Virus record (IMG/VR): IMGVR_UViG_3300043172_000799
Location: 92,944 to 156,943 of that record
DNA: 64,000 nt
Source of the DNA: a virus
Taxonomy: Duplodnaviria > Heunggongvirae > Uroviricota > Caudoviricetes
Reading direction: 5' to 3' (one strand)
Part shown: piece by piece, positions 23,629 through 46,960 of the stretch
Numbering within the stretch: position 1 is the stretch's first letter
How the letters are laid out: each line of letters begins with the position of its first letter
The notes under the pieces: generated by a model
Seen by the model: only the letters and a program-made list of their open reading frames with translations
Told to the model about the DNA's origin: nothing
Database searches by the model: none
Translations under genes and position numbers: made by a program

Positions 23629-23927
23629 TGGATTTTCTCCATTAAAGTCATAACTGTACCATCCTCTAGGAAGATTAGTCCTACAATAGTTTTAGCAGTT
23701 ATGCGTTCTAGTTCTCTAATCTCTTGAATTATATCAGATTTTAATACTATACAATTTTCGGCTGACCCCGAATATCCATTTTTCCAAAAAAAATCACCAG
23801 AAACTTCAGCATTCTCTACACTTGTGTTCATGATATCGGAGGGAGCTTTAACCTCCTCTTCGATCACTTCTTCTACCGAAGGAGGTTGTCTTCCAAGTTC
23901 CTTACTCGTTTTATATTTATCAACCAT
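23625..23927 (-). CDS. hypothetical protein
   Basis: 100-aa ORF. Confidence 0.3.
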   Translation of the reverse strand: MVDKYKTSKELGRQPPSVEEVIEEEVKAPSDIMNTSVENAEVSGDFFWKNGYSGSAENCIVLKSDIIQEIRELERITAKTIVGLIFLEDGTVMTLMEKIQ

Positions 23928-25206
23928 TATCTTTTATCCAATCCTCTATTGTGATTTTCTCATATTCTTCCTTAGATATTTCCCGTTTTACAAATACTTT
24001 TTTTGCACGTGGAGCACTATCATAAAAATCAAATATCATATCGTCATATTTCACTTCCAATTCCAAAATAACAGAATTAGCGTCATTACTATGAGGAAGC
24101 ACAGAAGGTGCAATCTCACCATATATCCCAGAAGAATATCTACCATAGTACCCTCTCATGACTGCCTCTATCTCTTCTCCTACTACATACTCAAAATCAG
24201 ATTGCCAATAGGAGATTAGCTTAGAGCCTTTCTTCTTTACATTTTTATACATCTTAAAGGAATCTAATTTTTGAATAGGGTGGATAATATCTTCTTCATC
24301 ATCCTTTGCTACGTACACCATTTTCATGTAATTACTACCAGCAATAATGAATGCCATTTCTCCAATTTTGTATACCTTAGAAGGGGTAGGGCACAAATCT
24401 TTATATATTTTGATTTGATAATCTTCCTCATCTATTGCACTACTATCAACCATATTTGCACCATCATTTCTACTACTACCAAACAAAATGACATCATTCT
24501 CTGGATACCCTGCTATACACAAATACTTTCCTTCCTTAAATGGGAGTATTTTTATGGTAGAAATAAAATCCATAACGTTAACTTCATTGAACTCACTATA
24601 TCCTTTCTTTTCCCATTCTTCTTTCAAATTGATACCATACATTCCTTGGATATGGTTTTCTACATCCTCTATACATGTAAGATTTAGAAAAGATGTTTTA
24701 AGAGCAATCTTTATCATTTCTCTCCTAGAGATGTGAAACCCCTTCTCTTTGTATTTATGAATTCTAAGAAGAGATCCTATGGGGTACATATTAGTACCGG
24801 AATAAATTAACTTCCTGCCTATTATATCTCTATGAAATCTAGGATCAAATACAAACTCCTCCGTTTCAAAATCAAATCCTGCCATACAAATGGTAAAGTC
24901 AAATGATTCAAATATTTCCTCCAGAGAATTGAAGTATTTAAATAAGATAAGATTACGAGGGATGGTAAACCCTACAATTATCATAGAGCGCTTTGTGTAA
25001 GATATTACTGCTTGTCCCTCATTGCATATGTAAAAATTGAAGGCATCTCCCTTTGATCTAAAGTAAAGATCAAAATCTTTTATTTCTGTGCCGGAGAAGA
25101 GAGATAGTATTGCTCCTCCGGCTAAGAATGCTTTCATTTTTTTTAACTCGTTGTATGTTACTTCTCCCATTAAAGAGATTAGTTTTTCTTTTTCATATTT
25201 GTACAT
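23920..25206 (-). CDS. CCA-adding enzyme / poly(A) polymerase-family nucleotidyltransferase-like protein
   Basis: 'GGAILSLFSGTEIKDFDL' matches the class II CCA-enzyme head motif 'GGAVRDLLLGRPPKDIDL' residue for residue in spacing. 'DFTICMAGFD' matches 'RRDFTINA'. 'DPRFHRDIIGRKLIYSG' matches 'DPfgGl.DL..k.iR.vG'. The RR of motif B is replaced by 'ES'. Confidence 0.55.
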   Translation of the reverse strand: MYKYEKEKLISLMGEVTYNELKKMKAFLAGGAILSLFSGTEIKDFDLYFRSKGDAFNFYICNEGQAVISYTKRSMIIVGFTIPRNLILFKYFNSLEEIFESFDFTICMAGFDFETEEFVFDPRFHRDIIGRKLIYSGTNMYPIGSLLRIHKYKEKGFHISRREMIKIALKTSFLNLTCIEDVENHIQGMYGINLKEEWEKKGYSEFNEVNVMDFISTIKILPFKEGKYLCIAGYPENDVILFGSSRNDGANMVDSSAIDEEDYQIKIYKDLCPTPSKVYKIGEMAFIIAGSNYMKMVYVAKDDEEDIIHPIQKLDSFKMYKNVKKKGSKLISYWQSDFEYVVGEEIEAVMRGYYGRYSSGIYGEIAPSVLPHSNDANSVILELEVKYDDMIFDFYDSAPRAKKVFVKREISKEEYEKITIEDWIKDNG

Positions 25207-26069
25207 TACACAGACACCTCTCCTCTAATTGATGGATGATAAGAATAATCTATTAAAACAATATCCTCACTAGAATTAAAATCTCTTATATCTTTTAATT
25301 TACTAGCAATAGTCACGGACGGTAATGTGAACTCTCTACCATCCCTAGAAATCTGCTTATCAACTTGTTCCGTGAGATTGTTGTAAATGTGTGTATCCCC
25401 TAAAAATCCAGTCAATATTCCAGACTTGTACCCAAATTGATGGGCAAGAAGCTCCAATAGCAATCCATAAGATGCAATATTGAATGGTAATCCTAAAAAT
25501 ACATCTACTGATCTTTGATACCATAATAAATCAAGATATCCTCCACGAACAATTACTTGCCAAAGCAGATGACAAGGAGGAAGAGCCATTTGATCTAACT
25601 GTAATGGATTCCATGCTGAAACTATCATTCTTCTATCATTGGGATGACACTCTAAACTATGTAATACTTTCTCTAACTGGTCGTAGTTATCACCATTGAA
25701 ATTTCTCCATTGCCTTCCATAGATTGGTCCTAAGTCCAATTCCTGTACTTGAAATGCTTTCCTTTCTTCATTATTAAGAACATCAGATGGGACTTGCATT
25801 GGATTACACCATTCATCCCAGATGTGGCAGTTTCTATTCTGATACCAATCTTTACTTGTTATTCCCTTAATAAAGCCTTCTAATTCGGTAGCCATGGTCT
25901 TAAAAGCTACTTTCTTAGTAGTAAGCAATGGAAATCCCTCTGCCATGTTATGTTGAATCATAGCCCCTGAAATAGATTGTGTCCCTGTACCTGTACGATC
26001 TCCTTTGTGCATTCCATTTTGTTTTATATTTCTCAATAAATTTATGTATTGTTTATCTAAAGTGTTCAT
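25206..26069 (-). CDS. thyA: thymidylate synthase (ThyA family; dCMP hydroxymethylase not excluded)
   Basis: 'MALPPCHLLWQVIV' active-site Cys motif. N-terminal 'LLRNIKQNG...GDRTGTGT' folate/dUMP-binding region. Confidence 0.8.
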   Translation of the reverse strand: MNTLDKQYINLLRNIKQNGMHKGDRTGTGTQSISGAMIQHNMAEGFPLLTTKKVAFKTMATELEGFIKGITSKDWYQNRNCHIWDEWCNPMQVPSDVLNNEERKAFQVQELDLGPIYGRQWRNFNGDNYDQLEKVLHSLECHPNDRRMIVSAWNPLQLDQMALPPCHLLWQVIVRGGYLDLLWYQRSVDVFLGLPFNIASYGLLLELLAHQFGYKSGILTGFLGDTHIYNNLTEQVDKQISRDGREFTLPSVTIASKLKDIRDFNSSEDIVLIDYSYHPSIRGEVSV

Positions 26070-27932: not shown

Positions 27933-28721
27933 TTATTCTCCTTTTCCTCTACTGTTATCAAAAGAGTGTTTGTTGAAGTACCTCTCTTCTGCTTCTTTTC
28001 TAACTTTAATAGCATCTTTTTTATATATAAAGGAACCTAAGTGTTTCCGTCCGGCACCCATACCTATACGAGCTATCCACCTCTTTTGTTTGTCATTCCA
28101 TACAACACCGGCAATTCCAGAGGTGTTATTTGACATCAAGGCTCTGTTCATATTGTTTTGGCTTCTTGTAGTAGGTCTTAGATTCCTGTTAATATTATTT
28201 AGACCATTTCCATCTTTATGATCAGGCATGTGTCCTTTCTCTGATGGGCATAGTATTTGATGCATCATAATAGTCTTCTTACCATAAAACTTTTGTTGAT
28301 CTATTGGGATGTTAGCAACAGCATAATATGTATTTGCCTTTGCTACTCTAAACCAGCAGATGCTTTTCACTTTATCATAATTTTCTTTATCTATAATAGC
28401 GTAATCATCACAGTTGAAGAAATAAATTTTAATGTAAGCACCACAATCTTCTGCAATGTTTATTTTGTGATTCTTAATGTGAGTTTTTCGTACAGCTTCC
28501 TTTTGTAGACAGCCACAACTCTTAGTTTTATTTCCTACCAAGTCTGCTCTTCTAATAGATCTTATACTCCCACTGGGACATGAGCATTTACATGAGTACT
28601 TCCAATCAGAAGGGCAGATATTTGCCTCGCCATTAATCTTACTATCCTCATCCACCTCAATAATGGTAAGTCTCCCAAATTCCATTCCTGCTTCTAAGTA
28701 CTTAGGATACTTTGCCATCAA
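27933..28721 (-). CDS. free-standing HNH-AP2 homing endonuclease
   Basis: 'CKCSCPSGS...SCGC'. HNH 'DHKDGNGLNNINRNLRPTTRSQNNMN'. AP2 'SGIAGVVWNDKQKRWIARIGMGAGRKHLGSF'. Confidence 0.8.
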   Translation of the reverse strand: MMAKYPKYLEAGMEFGRLTIIEVDEDSKINGEANICPSDWKYSCKCSCPSGSIRSIRRADLVGNKTKSCGCLQKEAVRKTHIKNHKINIAEDCGAYIKIYFFNCDDYAIIDKENYDKVKSICWFRVAKANTYYAVANIPIDQQKFYGKKTIMMHQILCPSEKGHMPDHKDGNGLNNINRNLRPTTRSQNNMNRALMSNNTSGIAGVVWNDKQKRWIARIGMGAGRKHLGSFIYKKDAIKVRKEAEERYFNKHSFDNSRGKGE

Positions 28722-29830
28722 ATAGCCTTTATCAACTTCTCTGAGGGGAAGTCCTCATAGTATTCCGCTACAGTCCCCACACTTCCATCTAGCCATTTAA
28801 AAGCAAGATCTTTATATGGTGTACCTACAACTAAGGTAGCAAATCTTTTTCTATTTGCTAATTCCTTATCAGAAAAGCTCTTAAGATATTTCAAGAATCC
28901 TTCTGCTTCTGCCATGTACAGATCATACTTATCCTTTACAGATGCCAAAACATTTTTGTATTCAGGAAAGTAAGTAAGCACCTCAGCCATCTCATTCTTT
29001 CTTATGATATCCAAAGCTCTCTTTTCTGTAAAGATCCCCTCTCCCCTCATATGGTGCAAATGAACGTATACTTCACCTTTAATCTTAATTCGATTGAAAT
29101 ATTTATCACAAACTACAATACCTTCTTTATCAGTCCCAAAATCTTGTACCAGATCTATACAATCCTCAAGATTGGCTAGATCATATTCTTGCAGACTACT
29201 CACTATAGCACTTATGGCAAGATGGTTCTTCTCTTCCCCTGTTTTATTGTCCTTGGAAGAAAGATAGAATATCTTTGGAGAATCATATCGTACCACCACT
29301 CTGTTAGAGGGAGTACACAATTCAAAGATATGCGTTTCATCTTCAAGATCATTAAGGAAGCTGAAATTCTGTACATTGTAATTAACCATTAAGGTATTGA
29401 TGAACAGTGCTCCAAAACTGTCAATAGGAATTCCTTCATCATTGAAAGTAAGTTCCTGAAGCCCTGCATTAAATCCATTTATTGTCCCATTGGTAGCAAT
29501 GAACCATCCACCATTTATACAGTATAGTTTTATGATGCTTCCATCTTCCTTAGAAGTAGCTCGTGCAGATTTCCAATCAATTTCTGGAACGTAACTCTCA
29601 CCATAATTTCCAAACTTATGAAAGGGATGACATACTATTTCCCAAGTACCTTCCCGAAGGATAATTCCTCTACATTCTCGCACTAATGGCTTGTGAAAAT
29701 CTGATTTAATTTGGTTATACTTAAATATGACTAATCCGTTATCTTTCTTAACCTTTATAGCATAATCTCTTTCTAAAAGCTCCTCATAGTTCTCTGGATG
29801 CTCTTTACAAAACTCTTGTATTTTTAACAT
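28718..29830 (-). CDS. rnlA: RNA ligase 1 (T4 RnlA-like)
   Basis: 'VRECRGIILRE' matches T4 Rnl1 'ALECRGIMFEM'. Motif I 'TSKEDGSIIKLY' matches 'TKEDGSLVS'. Confidence 0.8.
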   Translation of the reverse strand: MLKIQEFCKEHPENYEELLERDYAIKVKKDNGLVIFKYNQIKSDFHKPLVRECRGIILREGTWEIVCHPFHKFGNYGESYVPEIDWKSARATSKEDGSIIKLYCINGGWFIATNGTINGFNAGLQELTFNDEGIPIDSFGALFINTLMVNYNVQNFSFLNDLEDETHIFELCTPSNRVVVRYDSPKIFYLSSKDNKTGEEKNHLAISAIVSSLQEYDLANLEDCIDLVQDFGTDKEGIVVCDKYFNRIKIKGEVYVHLHHMRGEGIFTEKRALDIIRKNEMAEVLTYFPEYKNVLASVKDKYDLYMAEAEGFLKYLKSFSDKELANRKRFATLVVGTPYKDLAFKWLDGSVGTVAEYYEDFPSEKLIKAI

Positions 29831-30132: not shown

Positions 30133-31014
30133 TTAAAATTCAGTGTGGTAAATTCTATCATCAATATTAAATACGGTAAGTCCCATACTTTTCCATTCTC
30201 TGACCATAATCGGACGATCATCAAATACACCACACACAACAAAGCCCTTTCTGGCAACATGCTGGTCAAATAATTCCCGTTTAATAATAGCATCTTTCCT
30301 ACTGTCACCTTTGGCTCGCATGTATAATCCCTCGTATGGGATGATATAATCATCTAACCACTTTTCAGTAAGTTCTCGGCAAGAGCTATCTCTCCCAGAC
30401 ATAATGTAGATCGTATTTCCGGTTCTATGTAGTAGTCTCAAAATTAGAGCTACATCTACCCTTAACTTATCTTCTCCTACCCGATCCCACATAAAAGGTT
30501 TTCTACCATTCATTTGAGCAAGGGAGCCATCCAAATCAAAAATATAAAGTTGATTTAAATTTCCATCTCTGGGGTCTGCCTGATGCTTTTTGTTTTCCCT
30601 AACATCAAAATGTCTCATCCAAGTATTTTGAATGATACTAGCACCAAGACTATTCTCACGCTTAAGATCGTTCTCAATACATTTTTCCAAAGGCACATCT
30701 AGAAAACTTTTAATTTCAAATTCCACAGCCGGATAGTACCCTTTAATTACTGCCTTTCTCTCTTTGATTTTTTCCATACTTAAATTCATGGAATCAATAA
30801 TTGCATTCTTCCCACTATCCAAAATAGATAGAATCATTTCCTTCTCAACCTTGGAGATGAACTTCTCATTTTTGGCATTAAAATGAATATTATCAAACAT
30901 CAGCCGGAGATCGTCCCTGCATACTCGTTTCCAATTAGGGTCTTGAGCACGTTTCTTAGCATACGTACTCTTCCCTGATCCTTGAATACCACGCATAAAT
31001 AATACTTTACTCAC
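30133..31014 (-). CDS. pnk: polynucleotide 5'-kinase / 3'-phosphatase (T4 Pnk-like)
   Basis: N-terminal P-loop 'FMRGIQGSGKSTYAKK'. C-terminal HAD phosphatase 'LYIFDLDGSLAQMNGR...IMSGRDS...KGDSRKDAIIKRELF...VFDDRP' is collinear with T4 Pnk 'VIFDVDGTLAKMNGR...VVSGRES...QGDTRKDDVVKEEIF...AIDDRT'. Confidence 0.85.
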   Translation of the reverse strand: MSKVLFMRGIQGSGKSTYAKKRAQDPNWKRVCRDDLRLMFDNIHFNAKNEKFISKVEKEMILSILDSGKNAIIDSMNLSMEKIKERKAVIKGYYPAVEFEIKSFLDVPLEKCIENDLKRENSLGASIIQNTWMRHFDVRENKKHQADPRDGNLNQLYIFDLDGSLAQMNGRKPFMWDRVGEDKLRVDVALILRLLHRTGNTIYIMSGRDSSCRELTEKWLDDYIIPYEGLYMRAKGDSRKDAIIKRELFDQHVARKGFVVCGVFDDRPIMVREWKSMGLTVFNIDDRIYHTEF

Positions 31015-33371: not shown

Positions 33372-33941
33372 TTATTTTCCATAAGCCAGCCTTGGATACA
33401 GCATTCCTATCTTTGACTGTAAACCGGCTATGGTTGAATCATTGTAAATAACACTGTCAGGAACGATACTGTCTATTTCCATTTCAGAGGAATGTGTATC
33501 GATAGAGATAAGTCCCTCTCGTTCCAGTTTAATAATATGTCCTCCCATAGATTTAATGGTGTTGGCTTCATTTAAGAATCTAACATCAGATATAACTACA
33601 TTTGGCTTCTCTGTAAAAGAATCATACCAGTACTGAAATCTTTTTACCCAGATATCGGACCCTATCAATTCCTTGAATAATGGTAATATCTCTTGTAGCC
33701 TTTGCCTGAATAATTCTGTGCCCATAGCTTGTTGTGCCTGTCTGGGAGAGATATTCCATCTAGGGTCAATTGTCTCTTTATATTTTCCATTAACCCATTC
33801 ATCATCCCAAAGGAAGATTTCTGCCACTGATGTTTTAATTGGATCTGCAAATTTGTATCTGGTAAATCCAAATTGATCTATCAAATAATCTGCTACCTCA
33901 TCTTTCCCTGATCTTTTTTTTCCTACTATTCCTAGTATCAT
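33372..33941 (-). CDS. deoxynucleoside monophosphate kinase (T4 gp1-like)
   Basis: 'MILGIVGKKRSGKDEVADYL...YKFADPIKTSVAEIF' matches T4 gp1 'LIFLSGVKRSGKDTTADFI...YQLAGPIKDALAYAW'. Confidence 0.75.
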   Translation of the reverse strand: MILGIVGKKRSGKDEVADYLIDQFGFTRYKFADPIKTSVAEIFLWDDEWVNGKYKETIDPRWNISPRQAQQAMGTELFRQRLQEILPLFKELIGSDIWVKRFQYWYDSFTEKPNVVISDVRFLNEANTIKSMGGHIIKLEREGLISIDTHSSEMEIDSIVPDSVIYNDSTIAGLQSKIGMLYPRLAYGK

Positions 33942-34933
33942 TCCATAACCACCTTATCCAAATAATTCATAAACCACATTCGTGCTTTCACACTCATGGC
34001 TTTCCCTACATCTTTAGGCTCCAAACCATTCTCATTTAATACATCCATTTCTTCCATAATAATATCTCTGTTAACCCACTTAAGGAAATCACTCATCATC
34101 TGGATTCTGGGTGTTTCAGATGCAGAAGTGAAAACCTGTTCAATAGCCTGATTCAATCTGTTCTCTGTGACTGCATATTCCACAAACTCATTGACTGAAT
34201 TCATCTTTTCAATGTCCACAGGAGCTACTGTCTTAACTTTAGATGCCGAGTGCTTCTCCCCCTTAGTTTTAAAAATATGATCTCTGTGTCCATTCTCATC
34301 ATAGTGTGACCACACAATCCCTTCCCCAATACCATGTGCATCAAAATGCTTTGAGAAAGGACATTCCTCCTCCACTTCATCCACTAACTTAATCATTTCT
34401 GCCTGTGCAATCTGTGAATAGTTAAAATCAATCTCCAGTTCATATGTGAGGAAATCAAAGATATTATACACATCAAGATCCTCATTCATAAAATCAGGCT
34501 GTGTGTAGAAATGATCTGCTTCATCTTCAATTCCTGTATATTTGATTGCAAAGACCACAAATCGTTTAGAGAGATGATTTAAAGCAACTCCTGTCTGGAT
34601 ATTTCCACCACACCATTCTCCGAAGATAGTGGTGATATATCCATCTTTATGTAGATAATCAAATATTTTATACCAAAAATCTTTTCTATTGCTGGCAAAG
34701 AAAGCAAATCCTGCATTATCTTTCTCTGGAGTAATTATATTCTTTCTACTCTGATACCAAATTCCATCTGCCGGTGTATGGCATATCCCTGCATTCGTTC
34801 CGTGGAGCTTAATTGCCCCTTCAAAAGTTAGCGTAGGGTGTGTAGCTCTAACCTCTCCTTCTGGCACATGGCATACATTTCTAATGATGTGCCGGTACTG
34901 TCCTATTTTTGTAAAACTAATAAATTTTTTCAT
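33938..34933 (-). CDS. RNA ligase 2 (T4 Rnl2-like)
   Basis: Motif I 'AIKLHGTNAGI' matches Rnl2 'EKIHGTNFSL'. 'IFGEWCGGNIQ' matches 'VFGEFAGPGIQ'. Motif V 'IFKTKGEKH'. 331 aa, similar in length to T4 Rnl2. Confidence 0.8.
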   Translation of the reverse strand: MKKFISFTKIGQYRHIIRNVCHVPEGEVRATHPTLTFEGAIKLHGTNAGICHTPADGIWYQSRKNIITPEKDNAGFAFFASNRKDFWYKIFDYLHKDGYITTIFGEWCGGNIQTGVALNHLSKRFVVFAIKYTGIEDEADHFYTQPDFMNEDLDVYNIFDFLTYELEIDFNYSQIAQAEMIKLVDEVEEECPFSKHFDAHGIGEGIVWSHYDENGHRDHIFKTKGEKHSASKVKTVAPVDIEKMNSVNEFVEYAVTENRLNQAIEQVFTSASETPRIQMMSDFLKWVNRDIIMEEMDVLNENGLEPKDVGKAMSVKARMWFMNYLDKVVME

Positions 34934-44164: not shown

Positions 44165-46960
44165 TTATGCACTTTCTTCATAGTCCCATTCATATCCGTA
44201 ACTCCTTATCAATTCTGCCTCTTTCTTTTCATCATCCCAATCTTTATCAGCATAAATATGATCATACCAATTCCCATTATCATAGTATTCTACATCCGCT
44301 TTCATGGTATGTATAACCCATCTGTGTTTCTTCATTAGATATGTAGTCATATAATAAACAACTTTCTCACGCAAACCCTTCCCTATCCATTCAGATAGAT
44401 CTTCTGGTGTATCAAAGTATATAGCATCATGAATCTGGGCTACTATTTTTGTCTTTAACTTGTTTTTATCTATATATTCTTGTATTTTAGTTTGTGCCTG
44501 AAGAATAAGATGAAAAGCAGGTCCTTGTATCACGTAATTGTTACACTGATTTCTATTCATAACTGTAGTTGAATAGAAGCCTGTTGCTAATTTTGTTCTC
44601 ATATTTTTTACATAATTTTTCCAGTTATCTTTTCTCCATTGTCCAAACTCTCCATAATTATCCTCCCAGTACCAATCACACACAGTTTTTATATGCTCTG
44701 TAAATTTCTTTTCTGTATCTATTTTAGACTCTTTGAAATATTGTTTGTGGTATTCCTGTAGATGTTTATTGTACACTGTTGGACCTATACTGAGATATAT
44801 ATCTCCAAATTGTAATGAAAAGGACATACCATTTTTACCTATATACCTAAGATCTTTCCACATATGAGCTTCCGTGTCATTTTTAGCATCATAATTTCCC
44901 ATTTCTTTTTTAATCTCTATCATGTCTTTAGATACTTGAGACAATTCCCCCATAAACAATTTTTCAGCTAAGCCAAGATGCATATCTAATCCTTCCTCTA
45001 ATTGTTTGAGCATGGTTTTATCATGATGTACAGAACACCCTACACCCACTTCTAAACTACTTGCATCTGCTCCTATGATTCTGTTTCCTTCTGAAGACAT
45101 TAAGAAAGACTTTGACATCTCTGCTGCAAATGGATCATGTTGACTTTGATTCTGCCAGTTTGGATTTTGAGAAGATCCTCTATAACTTTTTGGTATATTC
45201 AAAGAGAACATAGGGTATATGTGCCCTTCTACCATTTCTCTTCTAACACCTTTCAAATCTTGTGTTAATTTTATCAATTTAGCAAGCTCCAAGTACATTT
45301 TCAAAAACTCAGATAACGGAGCTATGTCTTTTAGCTCTTTAGCTTCTGTTGAATATTGATCCCCTCCTGTTTTTTTTGTTTTAGGTAATCTCAAAATATT
45401 AAAAAGAAAATCCGACAATTGTTTGCCAGAACTATAGTTGAACTCTGTATCTCTATTCTCATACCACTTATCAATTTCTGGACAATTTTTAATATTGTAT
45501 TGCAATTTGACTATTTTCTTTTCTAATATCATTTCATTTTTTATCAATCTTTCTTCATCTATTCTAAACCCATTCTCCATCATTCTACAAAAAGATAACA
45601 TACCATCATGAAATAAGTGAAAACCCTTCATCAAATGTGGATCACCTTCTATTTGTGGCCTCTGCCATTCATAAAGATGATATGTAAAATGGCTATCTTT
45701 TGCACAATATAAACACATATCCTTTAAATCCATAAGATGCATTGTATTGAAGCCATTTGCACCATATAATGCTTTCTCTTCTTTTGTAGATTTAATATAA
45801 CTATCTGCCATACTATCATATCCTAGAATTCCAAATCTCATATATGTCTGTACTTTTAAACCTGTGATATTAGATCTATTATCCAAAATGTGAGAAACTA
45901 GCATTGTGTCCCATACAAAGTTTTCAGATCTGTATCCAAATATGGAAATACTAGCTTGATACTCATATGCCATATTGTGTGATATTTTTCCAACCCTATT
46001 AGATTGAAGCAATCTCTTTAGATTATCCATAAATGGTTTGTTGTCATAGAATATAGGAAAACCATAAGATACAATACCATTACTAAAGGACACACAATAT
46101 ATTTTATGTCCTTTTTTTTGTAATTTTATACCACTTGCCTCATAGTCAAAAGATACTAAACTTTCCTTTTGCATACATTTCAGAACATGAGTAGCATCCT
46201 CCTCATGCATTACGGTACAACACTCTGACTCATATGTATCTTTTCTAAATTCTTTTTTTGATAATATATTTTTTAAATATTTTATAAAGAATTTTTCCTT
46301 TAATATAAAATCATCATACTCACATAATTTTTCATTCTTCCATAAAACAATTTTATCATCAGAACTTTTCCATTTCCCCCATTTTTTCAAGGAGTCTCTT
46401 CTTTTTTTAAGAGGCTGGAGTACAAAATTAATGTCATAATTTGGCATAACTAGCTTATGCAATTCTTGATCTGGTATTATAGTTCCATAGAACTTTTCTG
46501 TAGGTTTAAGGCTCATCCTTCCATTACATCTATCCCCTAAAAGAATCTCTAAAGGAAGTTCTCCTAGTGTTATTATTTTTTTAGGATTTAATTGCTTGAT
46601 TGTTTTATGCAATTTGTATTTGCAACTATTTATAATCTGAGTACTAGGTCCTCCCCAGTCCTCAGAAAAACATCTCACAGAAGGCACATACCAGCAATCT
46701 CTTTCTAAGTCAATATTAATTTTCTGTAAAGCATGTTTTAAATATTTCCCTTGTATATTACTTAAAAGTTTTCCAGATTGGTCTTCCCTTTCACTTGGAG
46801 GTGCTCCCACAATTAAGATGGATTTATCTCCGTTACCTACCACTCCTAGTTTTGGATTTTGGCAGTCCATATAAGCTTTACAACTTTCACAGCCTCCAAT
46901 TTTCTTTTTATTAACTTTCTTTCTAACTATTTCTTTTTCTATTTCAAAGAATCCTCGCAT
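44165..46960 (-). CDS. family A DNA polymerase with N-terminal family-4 UDG-like domain
   Basis: N-terminus 'GCESCKAYMDC...ILIVGAPPSEREDQSGKLL...SVRCF...IITLGELPLEIL' fits the UDG family 4 layout (GCxxC...GEAPGxxED..G.pF...N.vkCrPP). Motif A-like 'GADASSLEVGVGCSVHHD'. Motif B-like 'RYIGKNGMSFSLQFG'. Motif C 'VAQIHDAIYFD'. Confidence 0.8.
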   Translation of the reverse strand: MRGFFEIEKEIVRKKVNKKKIGGCESCKAYMDCQNPKLGVVGNGDKSILIVGAPPSEREDQSGKLLSNIQGKYLKHALQKINIDLERDCWYVPSVRCFSEDWGGPSTQIINSCKYKLHKTIKQLNPKKIITLGELPLEILLGDRCNGRMSLKPTEKFYGTIIPDQELHKLVMPNYDINFVLQPLKKRRDSLKKWGKWKSSDDKIVLWKNEKLCEYDDFILKEKFFIKYLKNILSKKEFRKDTYESECCTVMHEEDATHVLKCMQKESLVSFDYEASGIKLQKKGHKIYCVSFSNGIVSYGFPIFYDNKPFMDNLKRLLQSNRVGKISHNMAYEYQASISIFGYRSENFVWDTMLVSHILDNRSNITGLKVQTYMRFGILGYDSMADSYIKSTKEEKALYGANGFNTMHLMDLKDMCLYCAKDSHFTYHLYEWQRPQIEGDPHLMKGFHLFHDGMLSFCRMMENGFRIDEERLIKNEMILEKKIVKLQYNIKNCPEIDKWYENRDTEFNYSSGKQLSDFLFNILRLPKTKKTGGDQYSTEAKELKDIAPLSEFLKMYLELAKLIKLTQDLKGVRREMVEGHIYPMFSLNIPKSYRGSSQNPNWQNQSQHDPFAAEMSKSFLMSSEGNRIIGADASSLEVGVGCSVHHDKTMLKQLEEGLDMHLGLAEKLFMGELSQVSKDMIEIKKEMGNYDAKNDTEAHMWKDLRYIGKNGMSFSLQFGDIYLSIGPTVYNKHLQEYHKQYFKESKIDTEKKFTEHIKTVCDWYWEDNYGEFGQWRKDNWKNYVKNMRTKLATGFYSTTVMNRNQCNNYVIQGPAFHLILQAQTKIQEYIDKNKLKTKIVAQIHDAIYFDTPEDLSEWIGKGLREKVVYYMTTYLMKKHRWVIHTMKADVEYYDNGNWYDHIYADKDWDDEKKEAELIRSYGYEWDYEESA

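Follow-up and report, generated by a model that had tools for sequence, protein, structure and literature searches.

Deletion of gad2 (Gabija anti-defence 2) renders the Bacillus phage SPbetaL7 fully sensitive to the Gabija defence system, and a Gad2 homologue from a Brevibacillus prophage does away with Gabija protection; expression of the SPbetaL7 protein is toxic, and AlphaFold2 suggested that it contains a nucleotidyltransferase domain (bioRxiv 10.1101/2023.05.01.538930). Strong induction of a Gad2-family nucleotidyltransferase from the Pseudomonas phage Emajogi is likewise cytotoxic (bioRxiv 10.64898/2026.09.15.751885), and the cytotoxicity of these proteins fits an enzyme that acts on a cellular substrate. 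Gabija itself is thought to act on linear DNA ends free of RecBCD, blocking genome circularisation, and the model put forward in the same work ties phage recombination and end-binding functions to Gabija sensitivity (PMC12407980). OLD-family relatives of GajA, namely P2 Old and also those of PARIS and retron-Septu, are tRNases (bioRxiv 10.64898/2026.07.10.737580). Here we describe a Gad2-like gene that follows the thymidylate synthase gene thyA in a window of 64,000 nucleotides, the whole stretch of DNA that was analysed (positions 92,944 to 156,943 of the IMG/VR virus record IMGVR_UViG_3300043172_000799; Table 1).

A divergent full-length homologue of Gad2

Sequence comparison identifies the open reading frame (ORF) as a full-length homologue of Gad2 (PF26128) and places it, as a divergent member, in a phage family that is large and already known. 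In a tblastn search of GenBank phages, which matched 150 records, the best full-length matches are the genes annotated Gad2 in the Bacillus phages SPbetaL7 and SPbetaL6; SPbetaL7 Gad2 (WIT28108.1) is 30% identical to the ORF at 97% coverage (residues 2-417, E 7e-44), and pairwise BLASTP of the two proteins gives E 3e-53 at 30% identity. The C-terminal 174 residues alone match the Gad2 C-terminus with E 7e-9. A database protein identical to the ORF (P0001), which occurs on two contigs, one of 102 kb from Logan and one from JGI, bears the precomputed Pfam label PF26128:Gad2, and the same label is carried by 85/85 homologues recovered.

The family is large, since an exhaustive HMMER search returned 6434 cluster representatives (50% identity) at E <= 1e-3 and 741 at E <= 1e-30. 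Searches against PHROGs gave strong matches to families that have no assigned function, along with a match to phrog_1614, 'nucleotidyltransferase', at E 7e-9. Scans of the ORF with NCBIfam, with PADLOC and with a Pfam set that does not include the PF26128 model yielded nothing meaningful, and phmmer against PDB sequences returned a chance match only (Tae4, E 1.5).

Predicted nucleotidyltransferase core and C-terminal domain

According to its predicted structure, the N-terminal half of the protein is a Pol-beta-type nucleotidyltransferase of the CCA-adding enzyme/poly(A) polymerase lineage. The AlphaFold2 model, built on an 85-sequence alignment, has a mean pLDDT of 82.7 and a pTM of 0.78, with residues 1-220 mostly > 90. 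When this model was compared with the PDB by Foldseek, E. coli poly(A) polymerase and class II enzymes that add CCA, CC or A took all of the top 42 places (E 1.3e-6 to 2.4e-4, 190-250 aligned columns); Pol-beta nucleotidyltransferases of other kinds, among them FAM46, Cid1 and CD-NTases, ranked behind class II, with E 1e-3 or worse. At the sequence level the class II likeness is reproducible but weak, and it is the predicted structure that settles the fold assignment. When all PDB sequences were searched with a profile of the 85 homologues, a single match emerged, the B. stearothermophilus CCA-adding enzyme 1miv, at an E of 1.9 that is insignificant alone; this alignment pairs AGGAIlS..DyDiY with GGAVRD..DVDI and sFDFTvCMaAfD with RRDFTMNAIAMD. 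By hhalign the score is E 0.018 (probability 2.5%) against E. coli Cca alone, and E 0.001 (probability 21%, 164 colinear columns) against a 7-sequence class II alignment composed of E. coli Cca and six phage tRNA nucleotidyltransferases, ORF residues 23-188 being paired with Cca residues 1-187.

A first-pass annotation, made from the letters of this DNA, had proposed that the gene encodes a nucleotidyltransferase resembling CCA-adding enzymes. The motif strings that it quoted, GGAILSLFSGTEIKDFDL (residues 30-47), ESFDFTICMAGFD (residues 100-112) and DPRFHRDIIGRKL (residues 121-133), are all present in the translated ORF. Its alignment of the head motif with class II CCA-adding enzymes and poly(A) polymerase was recovered in the profile match to 1miv, in hhalign and in the fold found by Foldseek, and the predicted structure, for which a match to an unrelated fold would by its account have refuted the proposal, has a class II-like fold. 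The pairing of the downstream DFTICMAGFD with RRDFTINA also reappears, with the same motif pairing in the 1miv profile alignment and in hhalign. The homology to Gad2 had escaped it. Placement among class II enzymes goes a little further than the published assignment of a 'nucleotidyltransferase domain'; our literature search found no paper tying Gad2 to CCA-adding enzymes, and a search for PF26128 and DUF7666 found nothing.

Residue conservation was counted over the alignment of 85 homologues, with n=84 in some columns. In motif A, G30, G31 and D46 are invariant and D44 is present in 84/85, and the R-D that follows GGxV in class II motif A is L-S in the Gad2 family. Motif B RRDxxxNA pairs with S101-F102-D103-F-T-I-C-M, in which the invariant D103 and the following F and T are kept and both arginines are gone, replaced by S/F/T and F (F102 in 84/85, C107 in 76/85); farther on, D112 is found in 79/84 family sequences. 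The alteration of motif B that the first-pass annotation had noticed therefore holds, as two arginines are lost, but its equation of RRD with ESF was off by one position and missed that the aspartate is retained. Motif D (EDxxR), the base template, is not present: position 140 is variable, 141 is Y/F, 144 is N/M/A and 145 is S/T. CCA-adding enzymes tolerate no replacement of the D and R in this template (PMC11784652). R148 (85/85) and Y152 are invariant, and the LR..KY..KG segment that holds them corresponds to the LR..RF found after motif D. As judged from these alignments, the predicted metal-binding carboxylates D44, D46 and D103 are intact and the motifs for ribose recognition and base templating are lost. 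One might speculate that the loss of the motif B arginines is compatible with the use of dNTP or of DNA.

The C-terminal domain, which comprises 170 residues and consists mainly of beta strands, reached a pLDDT of 79 when it was modelled alone. Foldseek against predicted viral structures (BFVD) matched it to DUF7666, phage rIIB, 'pentapeptide' phage and giant-virus proteins, with E 4.5e-5 to ~2e-2 and probability 0.97-1.0, and Pfam, searched up to E 0.1 with 29 sequences of the C-domain, gave no match to a DUF7666/rIIB-like domain. Its conserved residues are Y320, K321, Y340, G343 and D389. Whether a tRNA-binding body and tail would be found in this part of the protein had been raised by the first-pass annotation; the predicted structure is beta-rich, not helical, and the domain, which stands where the tRNA-binding body and tail would be, probably recognises the target.

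The family is modular. In a metagenomic member of 368 aa (P0009) the Gad2 N-domain is fused with a PcfJ-like one (PF14284, E 1e-15), several members, 215-255 aa long, are made of the N-domain only (among P0018, P0047 and P0077), and homologues from jumbo phages align only with residues 1-250.

Candidate functions of the Gad2-like protein

We favour the reading that the gene encodes a two-domain Gad2-family enzyme, a catalytic anti-Gabija factor that works by nucleotidyl transfer to a nucleic-acid 3' end, and we consider this reading probable. By analogy with the SPbetaL7 and Brevibacillus experiments, the protein would neutralise the GajA/GajB proteins of the host. Going by its fold alone, the enzyme would use an NTP or dNTP to add a nucleotide to a 3'-OH, most probably that of a nucleic-acid end, such that Gabija would either not be triggered or be unable to act. 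Such an acceptor would fit the action of Gabija on linear DNA ends. The anti-Gabija role is supported by the full-length homology, by the PF26128 label and by the published gad2 knockout phenotype, and catalytic action by the class II fold together with the conservation of G30, G31, D44, D46, D103, D112, R148 and Y152. That the phage encodes, in the window, an exonuclease, a UvsX-like recombinase and a Dda-like helicase of its own also counts in favour of this reading.

Several points weigh against it. The protein is only 30% identical to the sole family member that has been knocked out, and the family (6434 clusters) is so large and diverse that its function need not be uniform. The PADLOC and NCBIfam scans of the ORF gave no match. 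To our knowledge, no enzyme of the class II lineage acts on DNA or protein, and the choice of both acceptor and nucleotide is pure inference. Finally, a review of February 2026 lists the mechanism of Gad2 as unknown (PMC12904381).

The alternatives differ in what they take the acceptor, or the target, to be. The first-pass annotation had suggested tRNA 3'-end repair or CCA addition that counters CCA-trimming nucleases or MenT-like toxins, and such an activity could perhaps be exerted alongside the Pnkp (polynucleotide kinase-phosphatase) and the Rnl1-type RNA ligase encoded within 5 kb in one gene run. The closest folds are indeed those of tRNA nucleotidyltransferases, and the OLD-family relatives of GajA are tRNases (bioRxiv 10.64898/2026.07.10.737580), but Gabija is reported to target DNA ends, not tRNA (PMC12407980). 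The profile evidence also speaks against repair: PF01743 does not match the ORF at E up to 10, and the best score in the family is the 13.7 bits of P0009 vs a cut-off of 23. The motif B arginines are absent, as is EDxxR, whose D and R are irreplaceable (PMC11784652), there is no helical body or tail in the model, and no tRNA genes were found in the window. Nor is the gene neighbourhood conserved among 80 related IMG/VR loci taken with 10-kb flanks, where Pnkp lies near the Gad2 homologue in 3/80, Rnl1 in 1/80 and ThyA in 2/80. The Erwinia phage pEa_SNUABM_47, moreover, carries a Gad2-like gene in addition to a genuine tRNA nucleotidyltransferase. Repair of tRNA is the least likely of the rival explanations and we regard it as very improbable; the missing PF01743 match, the lost motif B arginines, the absence of EDxxR and the beta-rich C-domain all argue that the protein is not a CCA-adding enzyme.

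Two other explanations keep the catalytic core and change its target. The protein might nucleotidylylate another protein, for example by AMPylation of GajA/GajB, or synthesise a small nucleotide compound that keeps GajA, an ATPase-nuclease, in an inhibited state. The Pol-beta catalytic core is conserved and the RNA-specific class II features (motif B arginines, motif D, body and tail) are lost, and the C-domain could be a protein-recognition module in a family that swaps C-domains, as seen in the members with the N-domain only and in the PcfJ-like fusion. We nevertheless think this unlikely, because all of its closest relatives in structure are enzymes that extend RNA at the 3' end and because toxicity in cells without Gabija suggests a substrate other than GajAB. 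Another explanation is that the gene encodes a Gad2-family paralogue whose role in this phage has nothing to do with Gabija, and that it, for instance, tails RNA for host shut-off or transcript turnover or inhibits another defence; a different RNA-tailing activity had been the second candidate of the first-pass annotation, and as a chemistry it is possible. The family is huge and diverse, it occurs in many phage lineages and contexts with one subclade in replication modules, the present gene sits amid nucleotide-metabolism genes and not in an anti-defence island, and its product has a mere 30% identity to the validated protein. On the other side, the two-domain architecture and all conserved residues are held in common with the validated Gad2, and Gabija inhibition is the only experimental phenotype known for the family, so we give the non-Gabija explanation a small chance of being right.

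A more far-reaching reading concerns the family as a whole. Gad2 proteins might have branched off from the lineage of CCA-adding enzymes and poly(A) polymerase, lost the motifs for ribose recognition and base templating, and become template-independent 3'-end modifiers, acting on DNA ends or on tRNAs attacked by OLD-family TOPRIM nucleases, and guided by the DUF7666/rIIB-like C-domain, possibly with an ADP-ribosyltransferase fold. This proposal is speculative and we hold it to be distinctly unlikely; if true, it would explain for the first time how Gad2 works and reveal a new way in which an enzyme masks nucleic-acid ends from Gabija. Gad2 is one of few enzymatic inhibitors of Gabija, which is a very common bacterial defence. 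The metal-binding motifs that are kept, set against the ribose and base recognition and the tRNA-binding parts that are lost, narrow the chemistry to probe to 3'-end tailing, and for annotation the gene is best labelled a Gad2-family nucleotidyltransferase, not a tRNA nucleotidyltransferase.

Genomic setting and comparison with known systems

Every gene in the window lies on the minus strand, the GC content is ~34% and the GC skew is uniform; the plus-strand ORFs beneath the Gad2-like gene are shadow ORFs. As the first-pass annotation had stated, thyA is a direct neighbour, and it is the upstream gene. Read from the sequence, the ATG of the Gad2-like gene shares one base with the thyA stop (TAATG) and its own stop overlaps the start of the next ORF (ATGGTTGA). 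Because the thyA stop overlaps the Gad2-like start, the two genes are probably co-transcribed and translationally coupled. A promoter scan found 48 candidates vs 42 +/- 6.6 in shuffles, which is not above expectation.

The gene belongs to a gap-free run that encodes the Rnl1-type RNA ligase, an HNH endonuclease, three unknown ORFs, ThyA, the Gad2-like protein, a 100-aa ORF, a second HNH endonuclease and a clamp loader, with Pnkp just upstream and ribonucleotide reductase downstream. The two HNH genes, inserted between replication genes, probably encode homing endonucleases. Rnl1 and Pnkp form a T4-like tRNA repair pair within the gene run of the Gad2-like gene, and such a pair is the classic counter to anticodon nucleases.

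At the 80 related loci, ribonucleotide reductase lies near the homologue in 5/80, and linkage to thyA, Pnkp and Rnl1 was rejected as a functional clue on the strength of the counts given above (2, 3 and 1 of 80 loci). No conserved partner gene was found in the 80 loci beyond the synteny of subclades, the largest neighbour cluster (20/80) being that of one replication-module clade, and this lack of a conserved partner argues that the Gad2-like protein works as a standalone enzyme. The homologues in SPbetaL7, Perkons and the Klebsiella phage KP13-16 lie amid small hypothetical genes. In the IMG/VR loci L049, L051, L056 and their relatives (16-20/80), a homologue of the Gad2 N-domain is found within a conserved replication module whose neighbours, read from sequence without annotation, are a beta-clamp-like protein, a helicase, an AAA ATPase and a 167-aa protein; this setting is probably synteny by descent.

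In pEa_SNUABM_47 (MT939487.1) the Gad2-like N-domain homologue is located at 33808-34635 and the genuine tRNA nucleotidyltransferase at 105639-106751 (L091). Since both are encoded in this one jumbo phage, the Gad2-like protein and the tRNA nucleotidyltransferase would not be functionally redundant. The tRNA nucleotidyltransferase gene adjoins a ribosome-modulation-factor-like gene and a nudix hydrolase gene.

The window further encodes an ATP-dependent DNA ligase, in addition to the exonuclease, the UvsX-like recombinase and the Dda-like helicase, and a 388-aa ORF matching nicotinamide phosphoribosyl transferase; this ORF may belong to a phage pathway of NAD salvage directed against defences that deplete NAD. 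Megablast of the 12 kb around the gene found no match among GenBank phages. The phage is novel, large and low in GC; the similarity of its phrog_1735 protein to proteins of Bacillota phages and the 34% GC hint at a Bacillota host.

Table 1. Positions of the Gad2-like gene, its predicted parts and other features of the window
Feature	Position	Strand	Basis or remarks
Gad2-family protein gene	23920..25206	minus	ORF with ATG start, 428 aa plus stop
Predicted N-terminal nucleotidyltransferase domain, residues 1-220, class II-like head and neck	24547..25206	minus	AlphaFold2, Foldseek, hhalign
Motif A, residues 29-48 (AGGAILS...DFDLY), predicted metal-binding D44 and D46	25063..25122	minus	Alignment to GGxVRD...DxD of 1miv and Cca
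Motif B-like segment ESFDFTICMAGFD, residues 100-112	24871..24909	minus	Aligned to RRDFTMNAIAMD of 1miv and RRDlTINA of the Cca profile
Neck segment NMYPIGSLLRIHKYKEKGF, residues 139-157, in place of motif D	24736..24792	minus	hhalign and column counts
Low-confidence linker, residues 222-258	24433..24543	minus	pLDDT < 50; variable and gapped in alignments; described as disordered
Predicted C-terminal beta-rich domain, residues 259-428, common to SPbetaL7 Gad2	23923..24432	minus	DUF7666/rIIB-like
Shine-Dalgarno-like GAGGAGAGG	25217..25225	minus	10 nt before the ATG of the Gad2-like gene, within the thyA 3' end; read from sequence
Thymidylate synthase gene (thyA)	25206..26069	minus	phrog_160, E 4.7e-99; PF00303
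Paralogous HNH endonucleases, 256 and 262 aa	22858-23628 and 27933-28721	minus	phrog_99/374/4578; similar N-termini
Rnl1-type RNA ligase	28718-29830	minus	PF09511, phrog_562
Polynucleotide kinase-phosphatase (Pnkp)	30133-31014	minus	AAA_33 and HAD_PNKP, phrog_505
Family A DNA polymerase	44165-46960		Only ~22% identical to any GenBank phage
phrog_1735 protein, 680 aa	54136-56178		~51% identical to Bacillus cereus-group and Clostridioides phage proteins
Nicotinamide phosphoribosyl transferase match, 388 aa	62627-63793	minus	phrog_448, E 3e-21

Compared with the systems described so far, the protein of the window stands closest to SPbetaL7 Gad2. Both are phage-encoded and share the two-domain layout of a nucleotidyltransferase N-domain followed by a C-terminal beta-rich domain, and the motifs AGGAI.S, D.D.Y, FDFT.CM..FD, LR..KY..KG, GG.YG and YK...Y..G are common to the two. 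They differ in setting, since the window gene is a distant member placed in a replication/nucleotide-metabolism operon and coupled to thyA, whereas the SPbetaL7 gene lies in the SPbeta anti-Gabija locus; they also differ in that a knockout phenotype exists for SPbetaL7, whereas the window protein is known from its sequence and predicted structure.

With the class II enzymes and poly(A) polymerase I (PF01743; 1miv, 4wc2, 3aql) the protein shares the predicted head and neck fold, the GG...DxD of motif A, the aspartate and DFT core of motif B, and a colinear motif C/D region with LR..(K/R)(Y/F). In contrast to these enzymes it has no significant PF01743 match, shows S/F-F for the RR of motif B and does not keep EDxxR, and it carries a beta-rich domain where they have a helical body and tail. 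A phage in need of CCA addition encodes a genuine PF01743 enzyme as well, as in pEa_SNUABM_47. The beta-rich domain superposes on the predicted BFVD structures of DUF7666/rIIB proteins. MenT/AbiEii toxins add nucleotides to tRNA acceptor ends (PMC11541572). They resemble Gad2 as toxic nucleotidyltransferases in the conflict between phages and bacteria, a functional analogy only, for they form a separate nucleotidyltransferase family, to which Pfam, PADLOC and structure searches of the window protein showed no similarity.

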